Part shown: positions 23,538 to 38,523 of the stretch, one piece after another
How the letters are laid out: every line of letters starts with the position of its first letter
How positions within the stretch are numbered: the stretch's first letter is position 1
NCBI GenBank assembly: GCA_032128875.1
Contig: JAVLKG010000002.1
Location: 480,001 to 544,000, forward strand
Direction of reading: 5' to 3'
From: Candidatus Melainabacteria bacterium 17Bon1m
GTDB lineage: Bacteria; Cyanobacteriota; Vampirovibrionia; Obscuribacterales; Obscuribacteraceae
Length of the DNA: 64,000 bases
Translations under genes and position numbers: made by a program
The notes under the pieces: generated by a model
The model's input: only the letters and a program-made list of their open reading frames with translations
Told to the model about the DNA's origin: nothing
The model's database searches: none

Positions 23538-25502
23538 ATGGCCGCCAACGCAGCTAAAGCTGATGAAAAGGATGTCGCAAAAAGCGGCACTCAGCAGCCT
23601 GACGCCGCGAAAAAGGAAGGCGAAGACGACGATAAGGTCGAGGGCCAGGAGAGTGAGGAGCAGTCAACTGAGGACACCTGGGCAAAGTGTGTTTCTGACC
23701 CAGCCTGGTGGGACATAGGCGGACAGTGCAAGAAAGTCGGACAAATTGCAGAAGGTGCTTGGGATGGCATGATTTCCAGCATCTGGCCCGAAGACAAGCC
23801 TAAAGAACAGCCGAAAGTCACACCGGCTGTTGCAACTACTACTGATGCCGCCACGCCCGATGCAGCCAAGGCTGAGAAGCGCGGCTTTTTTGGTGCAATT
23901 GCAGATGGCGCTGGAGCACTGTGGAGCGGCGCTAAGGCGCTCGCTGATGGAGTTGGTAACGTGGTCAGCGATGCCTGGAAGGGCGTTTTTGGTCAAGACG
24001 CGCAGATGGAAATTACTGACGCGGACAAGAATGGCAAAACAGACAAAGTAACCGTAACGCAGAAAGACGGCGACGTCATTACGACCGACATTGACAGAAC
24101 AACCATCAAAAAGCCGGACGGTACTCTTGTCACACGCGACAGAGGCGTCACCACAGTAGAGAAAGATGGAATCTCTATTACTCGTGACCGCAACGGTAAT
24201 GAAACGTTCAAGTTAAAGGACGGAACGACTGGTCGCGTCAGTGAGAACGGTGACATGAGCGTAGAGCTCAAAGCATTGCGTGAAAAAATCACCAAGGACG
24301 GTGTATACGGCGAAATTGAAACAGCCAACCGTTTTAATAAGGTTACCTACTTTAATACTCATCTTCGATACAGCCAATTGAGCCGCGAACAGAGAGACCG
24401 GGACGTCGTCAATGCCGGCGATCAGTCTGTCATGCGCGTAGATAAAGAGAATGGCATTCACGTTGTGCAAGGTACGACTGCAGAAGGAGACAAACGAGCA
24501 TTCTTTACTAAGGAAGGCAGTCAGGACATCGTTCAGATTGGTGTCGTGGACGGACAGCGTGTCTTCCGTGTTGGCAGACTTGGTGCCGACGGCAAGCCCG
24601 ATCCCAGCTCGTTTAAGTCAATGCGCGAAGGCGCTGAACTGCCTGATTGGTTCAAAGGTTTCGGACGCAGAAAATGTCACGGACGCGATCCCGTAAACGC
24701 GAACGAACTTATGGATGCCGCGGGCGTGAAAGTTGAGAACGGAAATGTCACCGTCACTCACGAAAACATGAAGATCGGACCTGCAGCTAATGGTGGCGCT
24801 ACAGTTGAAGTGCGCAGAGGCGATGGTCCGAACGACATTGTCAGACTAGAAAACGTCAACGGCAAACAGAAAGTCGATGATGTCGCGAACAAACAGACCA
24901 CAGAGTGGGATGGTGCCAATCACCAGTATTCGCAAAAGAATGACGGCAAAGAACAAATCAGCTACAACCCCGAAGAAAGACATTTAAAGGTCTACGACGA
25001 GAAAGGCAATTTGTTCGCCGACAGTACTCGCGGTGGAACTACATATGCGGACGGCTCGCACGTCGGAGCCGACGGTTCGTACACATCGAGCAGCGGCACC
25101 AAATACTTCAGTCATGAATACCAACAAGTTCAGACAGCCACTAACGCATCTGTCCAGGCTATAGCAGGCGCTGACGGACATATTGGTTCTTTCAAAGCTG
25201 CCCTGGGCAAGCCTGGTGTTGCAGTCGACATGGGAGAACTGACTGGCAGTATGGGTAACCTAACAACGGCTTTAGCTTTGTGCCTGAAGAGTGGAAATTT
25301 CACCCATCTGGCTGGAATTCTCAGCAGAATGGGAGAAGTTCAAAGCCTTATGGCTCTTGGAATTCAGCACAATGCTGATGTTCAAACAATCAAGGCGGCA
25401 GTTCCAAACGCAACAGAGACGCAAATCGCTTCCACCAAGCCTGCGCCCAATGATGTTTCCGTACACCAGCTCCAAGAGTTGAATCGTCGCGCCACTGCCT
25501 AA
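23538..25502 (+). CDS. Large hypothetical protein with amphipathic helices and DG-turn beta repeats
   Basis: 654 aa ORF; acidic N-terminus, G/A/W-rich amphipathic segment, many (K/P)DG/NG turns and a helical C-terminus. Confidence 0.8.
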   Translation: MAANAAKADEKDVAKSGTQQPDAAKKEGEDDDKVEGQESEEQSTEDTWAKCVSDPAWWDIGGQCKKVGQIAEGAWDGMISSIWPEDKPKEQPKVTPAVATTTDAATPDAAKAEKRGFFGAIADGAGALWSGAKALADGVGNVVSDAWKGVFGQDAQMEITDADKNGKTDKVTVTQKDGDVITTDIDRTTIKKPDGTLVTRDRGVTTVEKDGISITRDRNGNETFKLKDGTTGRVSENGDMSVELKALREKITKDGVYGEIETANRFNKVTYFNTHLRYSQLSREQRDRDVVNAGDQSVMRVDKENGIHVVQGTTAEGDKRAFFTKEGSQDIVQIGVVDGQRVFRVGRLGADGKPDPSSFKSMREGAELPDWFKGFGRRKCHGRDPVNANELMDAAGVKVENGNVTVTHENMKIGPAANGGATVEVRRGDGPNDIVRLENVNGKQKVDDVANKQTTEWDGANHQYSQKNDGKEQISYNPEERHLKVYDEKGNLFADSTRGGTTYADGSHVGADGSYTSSSGTKYFSHEYQQVQTATNASVQAIAGADGHIGSFKAALGKPGVAVDMGELTGSMGNLTTALALCLKSGNFTHLAGILSRMGEVQSLMALGIQHNADVQTIKAAVPNATETQIASTKPAPNDVSVHQLQELNRRATA

Positions 25503-31510: not shown

Positions 31511-32884
31511 ATGGCTGAAAACGGCGATGACAATGTAGTGAAAGCTTCCGGACATTCTGAGGCGGATGCTGAGTCCGGCTGGGATTACAGCGCTTCGTCC
31601 GGTCCGAAAGATGGGACGAACGGCGCTGAGATTGTTGGTGGTCAGCCTGGAAGCAAGGACGAGTCCGGATTTTCGCTCAGTAGCAAATTGCTGATTAGCA
31701 TTCTTGTCGTTAATACATTTGGAGTTGGTATATGGATAGGCTCACAGTTCATGTCTCGTGACGACATTGAGAGCCCTAGAAAACCGACCACCGGTCAAGT
31801 AGAAACACACGAAACCGAGCTGCCTGTAGCCATTCCCCATAAGAATATTATTCGAAATTTGGGCGAGTCCACTGTTGCCGACATAGCTGAGAAAGTGGCG
31901 CCCGCCGTGGTTGCCATTGAAGTCACTGGCAGAAATAGTGCAGAAAAGACGCTGGCGGCGGCTATAGACGCCCCCACTCCGCAGTTCTTCTTTGGTCCAC
32001 GCATGCGCCTGGAGCAAACGCCACAGCCTTTTGTTGATGGGCAGGAAAAACGTTCTGCCGGCTCCGGAGTGATTATTAGAGAAGACGGCTATATTCTCAC
32101 AAACAGTCACGTGGCCCGAAATGACAGTCTGATAAAGGTCACCCTTAACGACAAGCGTGAATTTCAGGGGCAGTTGGTCGGCAAGGACAATTTCACCGAT
32201 CTGGCGCTCGTCAAAATCAATGCCACTGGTCTTCCAATCGCGCGGTTGGGCACCAGCAAGCACATACGACCGGGGGAGTGGGCAATAGCCATCGGTAACC
32301 CCTTTGGATTCGAGCACACCGTGACGCTCGGAATTGTAAGCGCCATCGGCAGGTCTGTTGCTGATTTAAATCACCACGTCGAACTCATTCAGACAGATGC
32401 GGCTATTAATCCAGGTAATTCAGGCGGACCGCTGCTTAACCTGGGTGGTGACGTAATTGGCATCAATACGGCCATTCGATATGACGCTCAAAACATAGGT
32501 TTTGCAATTCCGGTCGACGTGGCCAGAGAAGTTGCGACTGGATTACTTTCTCCGTATCACGCGATAAGCAGACCGTATTTAGGGATTTACATGAGAGACC
32601 TCGATCCTAAGGTGAGAGAAGCTCTTTCTATTCCCAAAGATGTCCGTGGCGTGCTTGTCCGCAAAGTGGCGGCTGGCGGACCTTCCAATCGGGCAAAGCT
32701 GGCGCCCGGAGACCTCATTCAAAAGGTCAATGGAGTGCTGGTTGCCTCGTCAAAGGATATGCGCGAGATCATAAAAGCCTGCAAGCCCGGAGACGTGCTT
32801 AAAGTATCGTTTACGAGGAAAGGTACTGTCTCTGAGACGGAGCTCACGGTAGGCGACTATTCCAAGGAAGTTGTCGACGATTAA
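31511..32884 (+). CDS. htrA: HtrA/DegP-family serine protease (TM anchor, trypsin domain, one PDZ)
   Basis: GSGVII, LTNSHV, DLAL, IQTDAAINPGNSGGPL and PDZ RPYLGI...GDLIQKVNG. Confidence 0.95.
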   Translation: MAENGDDNVVKASGHSEADAESGWDYSASSGPKDGTNGAEIVGGQPGSKDESGFSLSSKLLISILVVNTFGVGIWIGSQFMSRDDIESPRKPTTGQVETHETELPVAIPHKNIIRNLGESTVADIAEKVAPAVVAIEVTGRNSAEKTLAAAIDAPTPQFFFGPRMRLEQTPQPFVDGQEKRSAGSGVIIREDGYILTNSHVARNDSLIKVTLNDKREFQGQLVGKDNFTDLALVKINATGLPIARLGTSKHIRPGEWAIAIGNPFGFEHTVTLGIVSAIGRSVADLNHHVELIQTDAAINPGNSGGPLLNLGGDVIGINTAIRYDAQNIGFAIPVDVAREVATGLLSPYHAISRPYLGIYMRDLDPKVREALSIPKDVRGVLVRKVAAGGPSNRAKLAPGDLIQKVNGVLVASSKDMREIIKACKPGDVLKVSFTRKGTVSETELTVGDYSKEVVDD

Positions 32885-32901
32885 TGCTGGACGCATGAGT
32901 T

Positions 32902-33022
32902 TTGACTTCCGAATTTGATTTCCGAATCTAATTTCCAAATCTGCCTTCCAAATCTGACTTCCGAAGCTGACCTTATGATTCGGGACTTTTGATTCTGGAC
33001 TTCTAAATCTAGAACTCCGAAT
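32902..33022. repeat. Degenerate 13-bp tandem repeat (consensus about CTGACTTCCGAAT)
   Basis: ttgacttccgaat/ttgatttccgaat/ctaatttccaaat/ctgccttccaaat/ctgacttccgaag, then about 4 decayed copies. Confidence 0.8.
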
Positions 33023-33200
33023 TAAGGTTGCCGGTGGTATTTTCCCCAATGCGTGCCTTCTACCGCTCACATAGTATGCAGGTATCTTTTGGCGACCTTT
33101 TCCGAATCAATAACAACGTAGCTTCAGGCAAACCTGTGGCAGAGCATTCCTGCGAATTACAAGCAGCGTAAATGGCTCCTTTTGTGGAGAATTGGCTTAT

Positions 33201-34916
33201 ATGCCCGGTGGCGATTTCAGAGATAGTGTCTTGCAAGCTTCTGCTAAAGCCGAGGCGGTCAGCGAAGATGCAACAGAGCAAAAGCCACAAAAGAGTAGTG
33301 GTGATGCCTTCTCTGACTTTGCGGCCGGCGCTTGGTCTTCGTTTAAGTATTCGCTCGTTCAGGCCCCTCTGACCGGTGCAACACAATTAATAGATAAGGC
33401 CGCCGGAACTAATTGGGAGCAAAGCACCAAACTTTTTGATAAGCCCGCACATGCCGAATTCGGGTCTGCGGGTTGGGTAGGAGAAGCCGTTGGAGGCACA
33501 GCCGGAGCCGCCTTGCCATTTATTCTCATGGCTCGCGTCGCTGGTCCAGGCGCCGCGGCAAAAATGGAACAGTCTGCAGCATACGGTATTGCCAGCAAAG
33601 AAGCTGTTTTTCCTGTACTCAAATCTATAGGGGCCGGCGTAGCCTATAACGGAATATTCACTCCTGTAGAACAGGGCGAAGATTTCCTTTCCGCTCGCGC
33701 CAGAAACATGGCAGTTGGTGGACTGACATGGGGCAGTTTGACCGCAACAAGTATCGGGTTGAAAGGGCTTGGTTTGCGTTCTTTCAACCAGACTGCAATA
33801 GCTGAAGCGCAAGGATTAGCACCAGCTGCGAAATATACCGAGGGCGTATTTGCAAATAATACAGTCCGAACCGTCTTGAAAAATGATGTATTCAATGGAG
33901 CAGCCGGTGGTATTGTCGGCGGTATCGTAGACGTCCAAGGGCGCTCTCTGCTTTCTGGTCACGGACTGGCATCTGCTGGTGATACCATGCAAGGCGCAGC
34001 AACGTTTGCGCTGGGCGGCGCCCTTATGGGCGGTACCAATATTCTCTATGAAAAGGTTCGACCCACAAGTGGCGACAAAAGATATAGAACTCTTGAAGAC
34101 ATTACAAAGGTCGCTGATTCCACGCGGGATCCAAGCGCTCCACCGCGATATTACTATGACAATCTTGCCGCGCAGGAAGGAAACGTCATGGGTGGGCGAC
34201 ACGAGCAAATGTCGGCTCTCAAAGGTATGATCGAACAAAGCCGTCTACCGCAAGGCGAACAAGGCAAAGTCTTACGAGCTCACCAAGATTTAGTGACAGG
34301 CCTAGAAGCTGTGCATGACCATGGTCCTGTCGGAGTGATGTACGGCTCTGCTCGCACCAAATCAGATACTTTTGCTTATCAAAGAGGAAGACTCACTTCG
34401 GCACTTGTTGCGAAAGAGGGCTATCCAATGATGACCGGCGGGGGACCCGGAATGATGGAAGCTGGCAATCGCGGCGCTTATGAAGCCGGTGGCCGCTCAA
34501 TCGGGGTTTCGCTGGAATTGCCGCACGAACCAATCGGCAACGGCTATCAAACAACAATTCTAAGTGCTAAGGACTTCGGTCCTCGCAAAGAAATTCTGCG
34601 CACTCACGATTTTGCTGTCGTTGAAAAAGGTGGCATCGGTTCTGTCGACGAGATGGCCGAGCTTCTTACTCACTTGCAGACAGGTATGAAGCAAAGAACT
34701 CCCGTCTACATAATGTACGAGAAGCCTTACAAGCATTTTGATAGCATGATGCGCGAGATGGAAAAACAAGGTCTCATCTCCAAGGGCGACCGCGAATTAT
34801 ATAAAATAGTCAAATCTCCATATGAGATAGCTGCAGACTTGCGTGCCAGACGAGAAGCCGGTTTGCTGCGCCCGGGAACTAACAAGCCGATGATTAGTCA
34901 ACCGATCGGTTCTTAA
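33201..34916 (+). CDS. Fusion of a Gly/Ala-rich hydrophobic N-terminal region with a C-terminal LOG/SLOG (TIGR00730-like) domain
   Basis: C-terminal MYGSAR, TGGGPGMMEAGNRGA, SIGVSLELPHE, FGPRK and KGGIGSVDE; the first ~300 aa contain several GxxxG hydrophobic helices. GGAGA RBS 10 nt before ATG 33201. Confidence 0.85.
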   Translation: MPGGDFRDSVLQASAKAEAVSEDATEQKPQKSSGDAFSDFAAGAWSSFKYSLVQAPLTGATQLIDKAAGTNWEQSTKLFDKPAHAEFGSAGWVGEAVGGTAGAALPFILMARVAGPGAAAKMEQSAAYGIASKEAVFPVLKSIGAGVAYNGIFTPVEQGEDFLSARARNMAVGGLTWGSLTATSIGLKGLGLRSFNQTAIAEAQGLAPAAKYTEGVFANNTVRTVLKNDVFNGAAGGIVGGIVDVQGRSLLSGHGLASAGDTMQGAATFALGGALMGGTNILYEKVRPTSGDKRYRTLEDITKVADSTRDPSAPPRYYYDNLAAQEGNVMGGRHEQMSALKGMIEQSRLPQGEQGKVLRAHQDLVTGLEAVHDHGPVGVMYGSARTKSDTFAYQRGRLTSALVAKEGYPMMTGGGPGMMEAGNRGAYEAGGRSIGVSLELPHEPIGNGYQTTILSAKDFGPRKEILRTHDFAVVEKGGIGSVDEMAELLTHLQTGMKQRTPVYIMYEKPYKHFDSMMREMEKQGLISKGDRELYKIVKSPYEIAADLRARREAGLLRPGTNKPMISQPIGS

Positions 34917-34941: not shown

Positions 34942-35268
34942 ATGACCCTAACTCAAAAGAAATGCATTCCGTGCAACGGCGGAACGCCTCAGTTGACCTC
35001 GGCCCAGAGAGCTGAGCTTCTCAAAGAAATTAGTGGATGGAACGTTGAAGACGAAAAGAAACTGGTCAAGGCTTTCTCATTCGACGATTTCAATGGGGCC
35101 ATGAGGCTGGCTAACAAGTGTTGGGAAGTCGCTGAATCCGAGGGGCACCATCCCGATCTCTTTGTCGCCTGGGGCAAATTGAAAGTTGAAATCTGGACGC
35201 ATGCCGTTGGCGGGCTTACCGAGAGTGACTTCATTCTTGCCGCAAAGATAGACGAAGCGGCAAAGTGA
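34942..35268 (+). CDS. phhB: Pterin-4-alpha-carbinolamine dehydratase
   Basis: KKCIPCNGG, AESEGHHPDL and WTHAVGGLTESDFILAAKID. Confidence 0.93.
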   Translation: MTLTQKKCIPCNGGTPQLTSAQRAELLKEISGWNVEDEKKLVKAFSFDDFNGAMRLANKCWEVAESEGHHPDLFVAWGKLKVEIWTHAVGGLTESDFILAAKIDEAAK

Positions 35269-35298: not shown

Positions 35299-36021
35299 CT
35301 ATGGGAAAAGTTTGTAGCAGAGTGCTGACAACCCAAACAACACAAATATGATCGCCCATATCCATTGTGGCGAAGCGGCTCCGCTTCCCTTCATCTCTTT
35401 GGAGCGTGAAGAGTTTCGCATCGCCTGTGATGTGCCGGTCTGTTTTTGCGCTGCTACCGAATCTTCGGAGGACGCTGCAGCAGCCGCTGCAGGCGCCGTT
35501 TTGCCCCCACCTTTTGCAGAACTTATGATAGCTGCTACATCGTCATCTTCATCGTCATCAGACAGAGCCGCTGCAAGACCAGGAGGTATCGCATCTTTTG
35601 CCGGCTCTTTTGCAGCCGGAGCGGCTGCCGCTGGCGCTGCATGAAGCTGTTCTGCTTTCAGCACGACTCTTTTGACTACATCGGGAAGCTGATCTTTCCA
35701 CGTTTGTGAATCGAGGAAGTCCGTCGCGCCTAATTGCATGGAAGTTTTTATCAAACCGCCATCAAGCGTTTCATTGCTCACCAAAAACTGAATTTTTGGA
35801 TGCTGTTCTCTTAAGTCTCCCAGCATGGTCAGCGCCTTCATGGGCTCCGGCGCCAACTCAATCCAAACCAGTTTTGGAGAAAGCGCGGTGATTTGTTTCG
35901 CCGCACTTTGACGATTCACTGTACCTATGAGTCGCAGCTCTTTGTGAGCTCCGATCAATGCCTCAATTTGCTTGGCCTTGTCTTCTCCTGCCTCGCAAAT
36001 GATCAATGTAGGTAACGACAC
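35299..36021 (-). CDS. Atypical (pseudo) receiver-domain protein with C-terminal TM anchor
   Basis: REC-like fold (PKLVWIELA, where Glu replaces the phospho-Asp; MQLGATDFL lacking KP), Ala-rich linker and C-terminal WIWAIIFVLFGLSALCY. Confidence 0.7.
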   Translation of the reverse strand: MSLPTLIICEAGEDKAKQIEALIGAHKELRLIGTVNRQSAAKQITALSPKLVWIELAPEPMKALTMLGDLREQHPKIQFLVSNETLDGGLIKTSMQLGATDFLDSQTWKDQLPDVVKRVVLKAEQLHAAPAAAAPAAKEPAKDAIPPGLAAALSDDDEDDDVAAIISSAKGGGKTAPAAAAAASSEDSVAAQKQTGTSQAMRNSSRSKEMKGSGAASPQWIWAIIFVLFGLSALCYKLFP

Positions 36022-36042: not shown

Positions 36043-38523
36043 TTACGTTAGAGAGAAACCACTTAGGACTCCGCTTGTTTCCATGATTTTGCGGCGCACA
36101 TCTTCGGCCCCGATCGAGCCTAGTTCAAGGTCTTTGAAAATGCACAGCAGTTGCATGGAAGTCATCAAGCAAAGATTTTTCTTCTTGGCGAACTCAGCCA
36201 GCGCGTCAGTGAAATCGGGCTCAGTTCTTTCGCTTGGCGGTCTATTCGACCAGGTGCAAGCAACCAACAAGCCTTTTGGTTCACTTTCATGCTCGCCCCA
36301 GTAATTGATTACCGACTCACCGAGGAGAGCCAAGTCAGTACGCTTCGCTTGCGCATTGCTCTTCACTACGTGAGTGAGAACGTCTGCTTTTTCCCCGAGG
36401 TTCAACCACAATTCATTGGCATTGTTCGGTGAAACTGTCGCTGTCCAGCCGATTTTGCCGAATGCCTTCTGGCAAGCGGAAACCAGACCTGTTCCATCAG
36501 CCGACAAAAGCGAATTCTTAACGCCGTCAAGAAGGGAGATTCTCGATTCGATGGTGCTAATGCGATTTTGAATCTGACGAATTTGCTCGTTGAGATCGTT
36601 TCTCTCAGACTTGAGTTCATTCAGCCCAGGAAAGGAATACTGCAAGCACCAATCTGGTGCTCCGACTGCGGTGTTTTCTTCCAATTGTGTCGTCATTGTC
36701 CTTGCCTGTGATGAGAGTGGAGATTCAACTGGAGTTTCCGGCTTGGGCGGCGGAGGAGGAGCTGGTGGAGGTGGTGGCGGCGGAGGTGGCGGCGGCGGTG
36801 GCGGCTCCGGTTCCCTAGGGGGCGGAGGTGGTGGCGGCGGCGGTGCCTCGAACCTAATAGGCTCCGGCTCTATGACCGGTGGCGGCGGCGGAGGAAGCGG
36901 TGGTGGTGGTGGCGGTGGTGGAGGAGGCGGAGGAGGCGGCGGCGGCGGTGGTGGCAGAGGCGGTGCTTCCGGCTCGTCCATTTGCGTCAACGAATCGCCC
37001 AACGTGATTGGAGCATGCGTTCCGGTCGAAGTAGTCTCCGACGGCTCTTCTTCACGTGGTGCCTGTGGTTGTGTCGCTTGTCCCGAGACTTTGAGTGACT
37101 CGAGTTGGGCCATCAAACTGTTTGCTTTGCCAGTAGCGTCCAACGCTTCTACCGGCGTGGGCGGAGGAGGAGGCGGAGGAGGTGGGGGTGGTGGTAGCGG
37201 CTCCGGGATGGGCGGAGGAGGAGGTGGAGGAGGAGGTGGAGGAGGAGGAGGAGGTGGTGGTGGTGGCGGCGGTGGTGGTGGCGGAGGTGGTGGCGGCGGC
37301 GCCGGAGGTTCTGGTTCCGGTCCACTTAAAAGCGCTCCAAGAGATGCCTTCACAGGCGCTTCCGTTTTTGCAGCCTCTGCCTTAACCGAGTTAAGAATGT
37401 CTTCAGCGCTCATTGCCGCAGAGTTCGCAGTTAAATCGATTGTTTCCGGAGACAAGCTTTCTATGCTTGTTGCAGGTAATTTGTCGTAGGTCGCCATCGG
37501 TGAATTGTATTCGCCCGACGTCAGAGTCAGAGGCGGCACTGAAGATGCTACAGGAGTCGGTTCTGGTAAAGTTGCCGTGCTCGATTCTGCAGATTTTTGC
37601 GCCAACATAGCACCCAAGCCTGAGCCGCCTGCTGGAGCGGGTGCAGGTTCTTGAATTTGTGGGCTTTCCAACCTTGGCAGTTGAGTGCTCGAGGTACTTG
37701 CTTTGTTGGCGACAAATTTGTGAGGATCCGGCGCCGTTGCTTGTGCTTGATGTTCGACCGAAGCTGCAACCAGAGCTGCTGTTTCGTCTTTGACGTACTG
37801 GGATATGTCCTCACCTTCACGCTTGGAATACCAGAGGTTCAAGCAGTGAATTAGAGTCCGGTCGAAATCCGGCGAATAAGGAGCGGGCAAGAAAATGATC
37901 CTTCCGCCCTTGTCTCCGGCATATAAATGTGCGGAGATGCATTTCTTCGGACCGGCAGTTGCAAGAACGTTGTAGCCTTCCGTCAAGAAATCGGTGCGTA
38001 TTATGGTGCTCCACTCCACGCCCGGTTGTGCAAGATATGAAGCGAATTCCGATTCATTGCCTTCATCGGTCAATTCCACGTTTCGACCGTGAGAGACGGC
38101 ACTCATATGCCTGGTGTTTCTTTCAGTCGATTTATCTGGTGCCAGACTGAGCAGCCAGACATAGTTGTCCATCGCTGTAGTCTTTCCTTGAATAAGGAAT
38201 GGGCGGGCTAAGAAATAAACCAGAATGCCGCCCTTTTCGAGAAACTTCACCAGTTGCTCGGTGCGGCTGTTAATTTCGTCTGAGATCGCTTCCAGCAGCG
38301 CGTCATTGGTGGTGTTGACCGAAGTCAGTCCTTCAGTCTGCGCGCTTTCGACCTGCCGAACCATGTCCGGGTCACGATCGAAAAGGTGCAGCGTGCTCAC
38401 CGGATTGACGATGATCGCCGTGTAGTAATCGAGTGGTTTGGCGCGCCCGGACGTGAGGAAAGACTCTTCGCCGAAGCCAGGGCAATTCAGCCTGAGAATC
38501 CTATCCTTCTCAATGGATTTCAT
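36043..38523 (-). CDS. Polyproline-rich protein with coiled coil and C-terminal restriction-endonuclease-like domain
   Basis: 826 aa; globular N-terminus, several poly-Pro tracts, heptad coiled coil (LKSERNDLNEQIRQIQNRISTIESRI) and C-terminal EPKGLLVAC...FAKKKNLCLMTSMQLL. Confidence 0.8.
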   Translation of the reverse strand: MKSIEKDRILRLNCPGFGEESFLTSGRAKPLDYYTAIIVNPVSTLHLFDRDPDMVRQVESAQTEGLTSVNTTNDALLEAISDEINSRTEQLVKFLEKGGILVYFLARPFLIQGKTTAMDNYVWLLSLAPDKSTERNTRHMSAVSHGRNVELTDEGNESEFASYLAQPGVEWSTIIRTDFLTEGYNVLATAGPKKCISAHLYAGDKGGRIIFLPAPYSPDFDRTLIHCLNLWYSKREGEDISQYVKDETAALVAASVEHQAQATAPDPHKFVANKASTSSTQLPRLESPQIQEPAPAPAGGSGLGAMLAQKSAESSTATLPEPTPVASSVPPLTLTSGEYNSPMATYDKLPATSIESLSPETIDLTANSAAMSAEDILNSVKAEAAKTEAPVKASLGALLSGPEPEPPAPPPPPPPPPPPPPPPPPPPPPPPPPPPPPPIPEPLPPPPPPPPPPPPTPVEALDATGKANSLMAQLESLKVSGQATQPQAPREEEPSETTSTGTHAPITLGDSLTQMDEPEAPPLPPPPPPPPPPPPPPPPPPPLPPPPPPVIEPEPIRFEAPPPPPPPPPREPEPPPPPPPPPPPPPPAPPPPPKPETPVESPLSSQARTMTTQLEENTAVGAPDWCLQYSFPGLNELKSERNDLNEQIRQIQNRISTIESRISLLDGVKNSLLSADGTGLVSACQKAFGKIGWTATVSPNNANELWLNLGEKADVLTHVVKSNAQAKRTDLALLGESVINYWGEHESEPKGLLVACTWSNRPPSERTEPDFTDALAEFAKKKNLCLMTSMQLLCIFKDLELGSIGAEDVRRKIMETSGVLSGFSLT
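36745..37310. repeat. GGN trinucleotide low-complexity tracts (poly-Pro codons on the - strand)
   Basis: 37211-37300 is 30 consecutive GGN triplets, with further runs nearby. Confidence 0.95.

Follow-up and report, generated by a model that had tools for sequence, protein, structure and literature searches.

A type II LOG domain fused to a lineage-specific helical module in Obscuribacterales: a candidate exported effector

The window analysed here, 64,000 nt of Candidatus Melainabacteria bacterium 17Bon1m (order Obscuribacterales; contig JAVLKG010000002.1, positions 480,001 to 544,000), carries an open reading frame (ORF) in which a LOG-type phosphoribohydrolase domain follows an N-terminal region of some 345 residues (Table 1). 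Pfam places Lysine_decarbox (E 6.8e-19) and LDcluster4 (E 1e-13) at residues 377–546 of the 571-residue protein, which bears out the LOG domain with the motif KGGIGSVDE proposed in a first-pass annotation made from the letters of the window; the same scan finds no Pfam family in the first 345 residues. That annotation also described a Gly/Ala-rich N-terminus of about 300 residues lacking a signal peptide and holding several GxxxG hydrophobic helices. Gly and Ala indeed make up 31% of residues 1–300, against 17% in the long ORFs of the genome, and the best 11-residue hydropathy within the first 35 residues is 0.7, in keeping with the absence of a signal peptide. The helices and their motifs are present too, but the helices are moderately hydrophobic (19-residue peaks of 1.0–1.5) and the seven GxxxG motifs are not an enrichment over the 5.4 ± 2.0 of shuffled sequences (P 0.28), so that we discarded the motif as evidence. 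Misassembly, which the annotation had allowed for, is ruled out by a single contig, assembled from a different study's run, which covers the entire 4.7 kb with seven differing letters, and by full-length orthologues in nine other genomes of the genus.

The N-terminal region is a module in its own right. A profile of residues ~30–295 finds it in 12 genes of the source genome (G000), or 13 with a deeper profile, and in 73 of 81 genomes of the order at 1–30 matches each (range of copies 0–30); the profile search found it in none of 200 other genomes of the phylum and none of five further genomes of the class. The same search yielded 1,339 clusters at 50% identity from a library that carries no organism names, and members outside the order are therefore possible. 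The module starts within the first 70 residues in 145 of 151 cases, and Q54, P56, Q62, W92, G98, and G102 are each conserved in 89–99% of 146 modules. It is preceded by disordered leaders in which Ser, Pro, Asp, and Glu abound; a signal-like N-terminus was seen in one of 138 module proteins and a Tat motif in none. An observation apart is a 119-aa gene (G000 C5:562587-562946; L029) which consists of the conserved first half of the module alone and is a possible decoy, regulator, or remnant.

Searching with the N-terminus alone, as had been proposed as a check, reveals the same module in front of many unrelated enzymes rather than an N-terminus confined to LOG proteins, which would have told against the annotation: 138 C-termini sort into 42 unrelated groups. 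Even among the 68 module pairs that are at least 50% identical, 35 have unrelated C-termini, as exemplified by P0029 (patatin) and P0037, the modules of which are 80% identical. Pfam tips were scanned in the 137 members of at least 400 aa from the best 150 of the 1,339 clusters, and comprise LOG (16), GNAT (6), patatin (5), NADAR-like (5), LRR (4), TPR plus methyltransferase (2), and PTP/phytase (2), together with single cases of GGDEF, zeta-toxin, HAD, adenylate kinase, AAA_28, FHA, pentapeptide, and, weakly, RelA/SpoT; 78 have no Pfam family. Such a cargo repertoire is typical of effectors. The paralogues of the source genome add HD, EEP, NADAR, and esterase plus trypsin, along with kinase-like, nuclease-like, papain-like, and nucleotidyltransferase-like tips which are readings by eye (an overly strict kinase-motif expression gave one match). 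A word-index search with the deep alignment returned nine LOG fusions and nothing else. Tail to tail with a NADAR-bearing module gene lies a gene of 2,598 aa with an acidic disordered start (G000 C15:63412-71208, minus strand).

As judged from its residues, the LOG domain belongs to type II, on account of both catalytic residues and the extra N-terminal α1 helix. The catalytic Arg is kept in 44 and the catalytic Glu in all of 45 fused LOGs; the alignment to TT1465 begins at residue 9, and the corresponding helix is modelled at residues 351–374 with a low predicted local distance difference test score (pLDDT). In comparison with the type II LOGs TT1465 (1WEK), CgLOGII (Cg1261; 5WQ3), and that of S. 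coelicolor (5ZI9), and with the family TIGR00730, against which it scores 78.9, under the cut-off of 96.35, the domain is set apart by its fusion behind a 345-aa N-terminus. It differs also in its motif, the Pro of which is found in two of the 45 fused LOGs (and is thus missing from 43) against 12 of 12 comparison rows; here it is Lys, and GGxG[ST]xDE is retained. The base and prenyl pocket residues vary at the positions of F153, K156, and D177, and because the base pocket differs from that of the housekeeping LOG the preferred nucleotide may differ as well. The fused LOGs form their own clade with longer branches in a quick tree made without bootstrap, from which 47 of 115 lower-ranked outside LOGs (about half) were excluded. 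The source genome also possesses a stand-alone type II LOG, 33% identical to the fused one; it is kept in a separate clade, and the fusion is therefore an extra copy. From the same sequences, the module–LOG combination is best described as one ancient fusion, the LOG subfamily itself being without cargo swapping. A DeoC-like aldolase fused to a LOG domain was noticed by eye in a genome from another order of the class (G034, L037:3720-5246, minus strand); it would couple nucleotide cleavage to the use of deoxyribose-phosphate.

Using the linker plus LOG as query, and counting matches that start at query positions 1–4 (one fragment in G015 excluded), the fused type occurs in 33 of 107 genomes and 13 of 38 genera of the order, with a patchy spread within genera. 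Orthologues of full length (65–97% identity) are found in 10 of the 13 genomes of the source genus, the source genome included, and the three genomes without one are 64–84% complete. HtrA lies upstream in eight and PhhB downstream in seven of the 10 loci as called by an ORF script, which at the remaining loci chose an overlapping ORF or reached a contig end. The ratio of nonsynonymous to synonymous substitution rates (dN/dS) against the closest orthologue, beyond which dS is saturated, is 0.020 for the module and 0.016 for the LOG domain (leader, see Table 1). A second, divergent module–LOG gene (39–40% identity) in another neighbourhood was seen in G009 (C51; L032) and G004 (C103; L033), pointing to an old duplication or transfer.

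The second half of the module is predicted to adopt a four-helix arrangement of small-residue helices which resembles Tim17/Tim22/Tim23/NDUFA11 (PF02466), the match spanning 105–132 residues. To our knowledge, the Tim17/22/23 family is held to be exclusive to eukaryotes. The tail of the PRAT motif, D-x6-[GAS]-G-x3-G, is present in 43 of 146 modules against 5.8 in shuffles, and Asp or Glu occupies in 79 of 146 a position which, from the motif spacing, suggests correspondence to Tim17 D76; the complete motif is found in none of the 146. Plant NDUFA11 was the best non-LOG match in all three profile searches of 177,635 sequences (E 0.04, 0.04, and 1.8), a signal not strengthened by deeper alignments. 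Pfam Tim17 fails to detect the module, and its one match genome-wide, of 22 codons, is unrelated. Foldseek searches of PDB and BFVD with the module gave nothing at E ≤ 0.001, 15 module sequences scanned against Pfam and PHROG returned nothing meaningful, and a module trimer prediction scored 0.00, which is evidence for nothing. Unlike the Tim17 family, the module is bacterial, with an extra conserved region of 75 aa in front and an enzyme behind. The ancestry of Tim17/22/23 has been called obscure (PMC12176269; PMC5072337), and the supplements of the latter paper list prokaryotic motif hits, possibly relevant to the question of a bacterial Tim17.

A candidate export machine is present in the same genomes. 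A VirB4-like ATPase, detected with PF19044 (PF03135 gave no match), is found in 106 of the 107 genomes of the order, mostly as two copies, as in the source genome. The VirD4-like coupling protein (PF02534, E 1.5e-18) occurs in 98 of the 107 at 72–100% identity and was found in none of 118 genomes from elsewhere in the class, and thus shares its taxonomic boundary, the order, with the module. In the source genome these genes form two loci resembling those of a type IV secretion system (T4SS; Table 1), the gene order of which is retained in three other genomes checked. No relaxase lies near either locus; the relaxases of this genome sit on separate elements with neighbours of their own, and TrwC is found in one of the 107 genomes. 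Neither a contractile sheath nor VipB was detected in any of the 107, and FHIPEP was detected in one; WXG100 was not found in the source genome, and type III (or flagellar) and type VI secretion were not found either. The source genome does possess type IVa pili, Tad pili, and three secretins.

Table 1. Features of the LOG fusion locus (window coordinates) and of the T4SS-like loci of the source genome (contig coordinates).
Feature	Position	Strand	Remarks
HtrA/DegQ protease, upstream neighbour	31511..32884	+	Not an immunity gene
Whole gene: leader, lineage-specific helical module, linker, type II LOG domain	33201..34916	+	571-aa ORF
Leader, residues 1–35	33201..33305	+	Disordered, acidic/Ser-rich, poorly conserved, without Sec or Tat signal; pLDDT <50; dN/dS 0.80
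Module, first half, residues 36–111	33306..33533	+	Best-conserved part (conserved positions in 146 modules); candidate export recognition element
Module, residues ~112–291	33534..34073	+	Four helices, moderately hydrophobic, small-residue-rich; predicted fold matches Tim17/Tim22/NDUFA11
Linker, residues ~292–345	34074..34235	+	Conservation limited to LOG fusions
Type II (TT1465/CgLOGII-like) LOG phosphoribohydrolase domain, residues ~346–552	34236..34856	+	Includes α1 helix
Catalytic Arg462	34584..34586	+	Equivalent to CgLOGII Arg155; numbering from PMC5379747
K476-GGIGSVDE484	34626..34652	+	Variant PGGxGTxxE motif; catalytic Glu484 = CgLOGII Glu178
Pterin-4a-carbinolamine dehydratase PhhB, downstream neighbour	34942..35268	+	Gap 25 nt; housekeeping, not an immunity gene
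T4SS-like locus 1, core, order-specific	G000 C1:794364-808895 (L142)		~1,700-aa gene, DUF2225, small gene, VirB4-like ATPase, then VirD4-like protein
T4SS-like locus 2, core, order-specific	G000 C3:874800-888608 (L144)		~1,700-aa gene, DUF2225, small gene, VirB4-like ATPase

From these data we consider it probable that the module–LOG protein is an exported effector and, given export, quite probable that the VirB4/VirD4 machine is the route. The fuller proposal, an exported effector which inserts into membranes and the LOG domain of which splits nucleotides in a host or prey cell, stands at close to an even chance. The protein would be made in the cytoplasm, where the export apparatus, most likely the chromosomal type-IV-like machine, would recognise residues 36–111; the Tim17-like half, if it folds as predicted, would lodge in a membrane of the target, be it cell or organelle, and anchor the enzyme or aid its crossing. 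There the LOG domain, assembled into a dimer or hexamer, would cleave nucleoside monophosphates to base and ribose-5-phosphate and drain nucleotide pools, the freed bases and pentose becoming available for uptake; activation of cytokinin in an algal host would be a special case of this. Rather than killing quickly, the protein probably serves to feed on the target or to manipulate its metabolism; the family cargo mixes eukaryote-type and bacteria-type activities. Precedents for such an arrangement are the X-Tfe effectors of Xanthomonas, in which one shared C-terminal domain (XVIPCD) is joined to many enzymes and accompanied by VirD4 and immunity genes (PMC8740702), and the Bep effectors of Bartonella, a T4SS effector family with the shared translocation domain BID (PMC8714903). 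The module family resembles both in carrying one conserved lineage-specific domain on many catalytic domains in genomes that encode a VirD4 coupling protein, and it too includes small genes made up of the shared domain alone; it differs in that the module is all-helical and hydrophobic, shows no sequence likeness to either, and lacks paired immunity genes. Vampirovibrio, a related predator in a sister order, has been proposed to inject hydrolases into Chlorella via a T4SS (PMC4451040).

Several observations weigh against this interpretation. The source genome carries two MOBP relaxase elements, so that DNA transfer may be what the VirB4/VirD4 machine is for. Genomes in which no module was detected (G016, G044, G047, G073, G024, G094, and G095) possess the machine as well and no module gene of the source genome lies near the two T4SS-like loci, so that the link between module and machine is one which we infer; their co-occurrence across the order can be explained by shared ancestry alone. 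There is no clear VirB10 (three sub-threshold matches). The T4SS substrate domains XVIPCD and BID are C-terminal whereas the module is N-terminal, and the family has neither a C-terminal translocation domain nor a positively charged tail, the net charge of the last 25 residues being 0.37 against 0.55 genome-wide, with no positive excess. There is no evidence of an intracellular lifestyle beyond weak, distant, partial, single-copy matches to the TLC nucleotide-translocase family in 41 of the 107 genomes (in the source genome at G000 C6:295171-295770), none of them in the small genomes. A fixed locus and a dN/dS of 0.02 resemble a housekeeping gene more than an arms-race toxin. The RNA-labelled runs contain the locus as one flat 13.5-kb contig and are therefore no demonstration of expression.

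A rival explanation is a role within the producing cell, in which the module is a lineage-specific anchor or scaffold that holds enzymes to the inner membrane or to some internal structure and the LOG domain acts in the cell's own nucleotide salvage or signalling. We regard this as unlikely, though it accounts for the strong purifying selection at an htrA–phhB locus fixed across the genus, the single ancient fusion, and the lack of immunity genes; a Tim17-like fold would be a membrane-resident one, and adenylate kinase, GGDEF, HAD, and methyltransferase cargoes have ordinary cytoplasmic roles. It sits poorly with cargo swaps between close modules, with a copy number that runs from 0 to 30, and with the tandem runs and patchy spread, all unusual for housekeeping genes; moreover, targets outside the cell are a better fit for the patatin, LRR, phytase-like phosphatase, zeta-toxin, and protease-like tips, and the genome already has its stand-alone LOG.

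Polymorphic toxins (CdiA, MafB, LXG/PT-TG, Rhs) and the polyvalent proteins of phages and plasmids likewise combine a constant N-terminus with exchanged enzymatic C-termini, and their cargo overlaps with that of the module family (NADAR, GNAT, phosphatase, RelA/SpoT, HD). A classical antibacterial toxin, the LOG tip of which kills competitors by nucleotide depletion while a cognate immunity protein protects the producer, is nevertheless improbable here. The family does contain bacteria-directed tips (zeta-toxin, RelA/SpoT, GGDEF, NADAR), and a small same-strand gene follows three of the 11 scored module genes of the source genome, two of these being ORFs of 103 and 168 aa; the third is PhhB behind the LOG fusion, which is flanked on its other side by HtrA, and the other eight genes lack such a neighbour. 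In another genome, of 2.8 Mb (L125), four module genes follow one another without any gene of at least 70 aa in between. Cognate immunity genes are not the rule for module genes; a short putative ORF does lie upstream of two of them in the source genome. The LOG tip, for its part, is not exchanged, LOGs are normal cytoplasmic enzymes, and the family differs from the known toxins and polyvalent proteins in lacking a known secretion marker domain and in not being phage-borne in the collections searched.

Less probable still is export by another route, such as outer-membrane vesicles, type IVa or Tad pili, or a phage-ejection-like process, with the Tim17 likeness a convergence of small-residue helical bundles. 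The pilus loci and secretins would be at hand, the language-model look-alikes of the module are unnamed phage proteins (0.93), LPD22 (0.90), and P22 gp16 (0.87), and phage polyvalent proteins are among the weak BFVD rows (E above 0.3); but these Atlas scores lie within a range sometimes reached by shuffled proteins, no phage sequence in the collections searched carries the module, and neither sheath, VipB, nor WXG100 was found, with FHIPEP in one genome of 107. A phage origin of the module likewise gained no support, no match being obtained in 50,697 phage records, in PHROG with the 15 module sequences, or in IMG/VR, scanned with two motifs from the LOG-fusion alignment.

A nucleotide-gated membrane effector of the Thoeris ThsA or SLOG-TM type, in which the SLOG domain senses a signal nucleotide and the N-terminal helices open a pore that aborts phage infection, is very improbable: an SLOG-superfamily fold does stand beside hydrophobic helices, its base pocket and motif Pro have diverged, and type II LOG hexamers (PMC5379747) would cluster six modules, but the domain is of the catalytic LOG branch rather than a cADPR-binding SLOG, and the locus has no TIR partner, no PADLOC match, and neither the SIR2 nor the Macro/TM effector that goes with a ThsA-type SLOG. 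The first-pass annotation, which had offered a polymorphic toxin or a gated effector, is partly supported: the constant N-terminus with exchanged C-termini is there, and the cognate immunity gene of a classical toxin and the ThsA-type features are not.

If the exported-effector interpretation is correct, one module would mark up to 30 candidate effectors per genome and offer a first means of studying how the Obscuribacterales, which are widespread in fresh water, act on other cells. A LOG enzyme delivered in this way would make a new type of effector, one that drains nucleotides or releases cytokinins. A bacterial domain with a predicted Tim17 fold also makes the question of Tim17/22/23 ancestry testable. 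A bolder form of the proposal is doubtful, namely that the module is a true bacterial member of Tim17/22/23 with which Obscuribacterales equip a large family of swappable enzymes for membrane insertion or translocation, their export being the task of a type IV machine that is found across the order and has not been described. The module would then be either a relic of the prokaryotic ancestor of the mitochondrial import channels or a captured host gene which aims effectors at host organelles. Should the likeness be convergence, the family is still an undescribed effector-like one. The LOG domain is a known enzyme type, whereas no earlier description seems to exist of the module, the family, or the candidate exporter; literature searches on Obscuribacterales and on bacterial Tim17 homologues listed no publication describing the module family, the LOG fusion, or the machine.

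Three genomes of a separate family, G025–G027 (L125–L127, L130), are a candidate host-dependent lineage. At 2.8–2.9 Mb they carry 17–19 module genes each, often in tandem and with PRTase-CE tips; the fused LOG was found in them by neither the linker-plus-LOG query nor the tip scan.

The gap between htrA and the LOG fusion is 307 nt here, compared with 143–213 nt in most relatives, and at 32890–33030 of the window contains short imperfect repeats, by eye variants of ttccgaat/ttccaaat/tctgact; promoter and terminator scans at the locus gave results at chance level. At least half of the words of the DNA are present in 16 runs. Five of these are filed under single organisms, and the others are plankton, drinking-water, seawater, aquatic, and oil-facility metagenomes; one of the samples may be the source of the DNA. 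Elsewhere in the window, 23538–25502 (plus strand) encodes a signal-less, lineage-type protein of 654 aa with an acidic disordered leader, short β-type repeats, a hydrophobic C-terminal part, and no Pfam family. The product of 35299–36021 (minus strand) has a receiver-like domain, a low-complexity linker, and a C-terminal hydrophobic helix, and its N-terminus resembles, by eye, the CpaE-like gene of the Tad locus at G000 C5:309335-310516. Next to it, the 826-aa product of 36043–38523 (minus strand) matches no Pfam family; it combines a coiled coil with very long runs of proline, and its C-terminal domain looks by eye like a restriction endonuclease.
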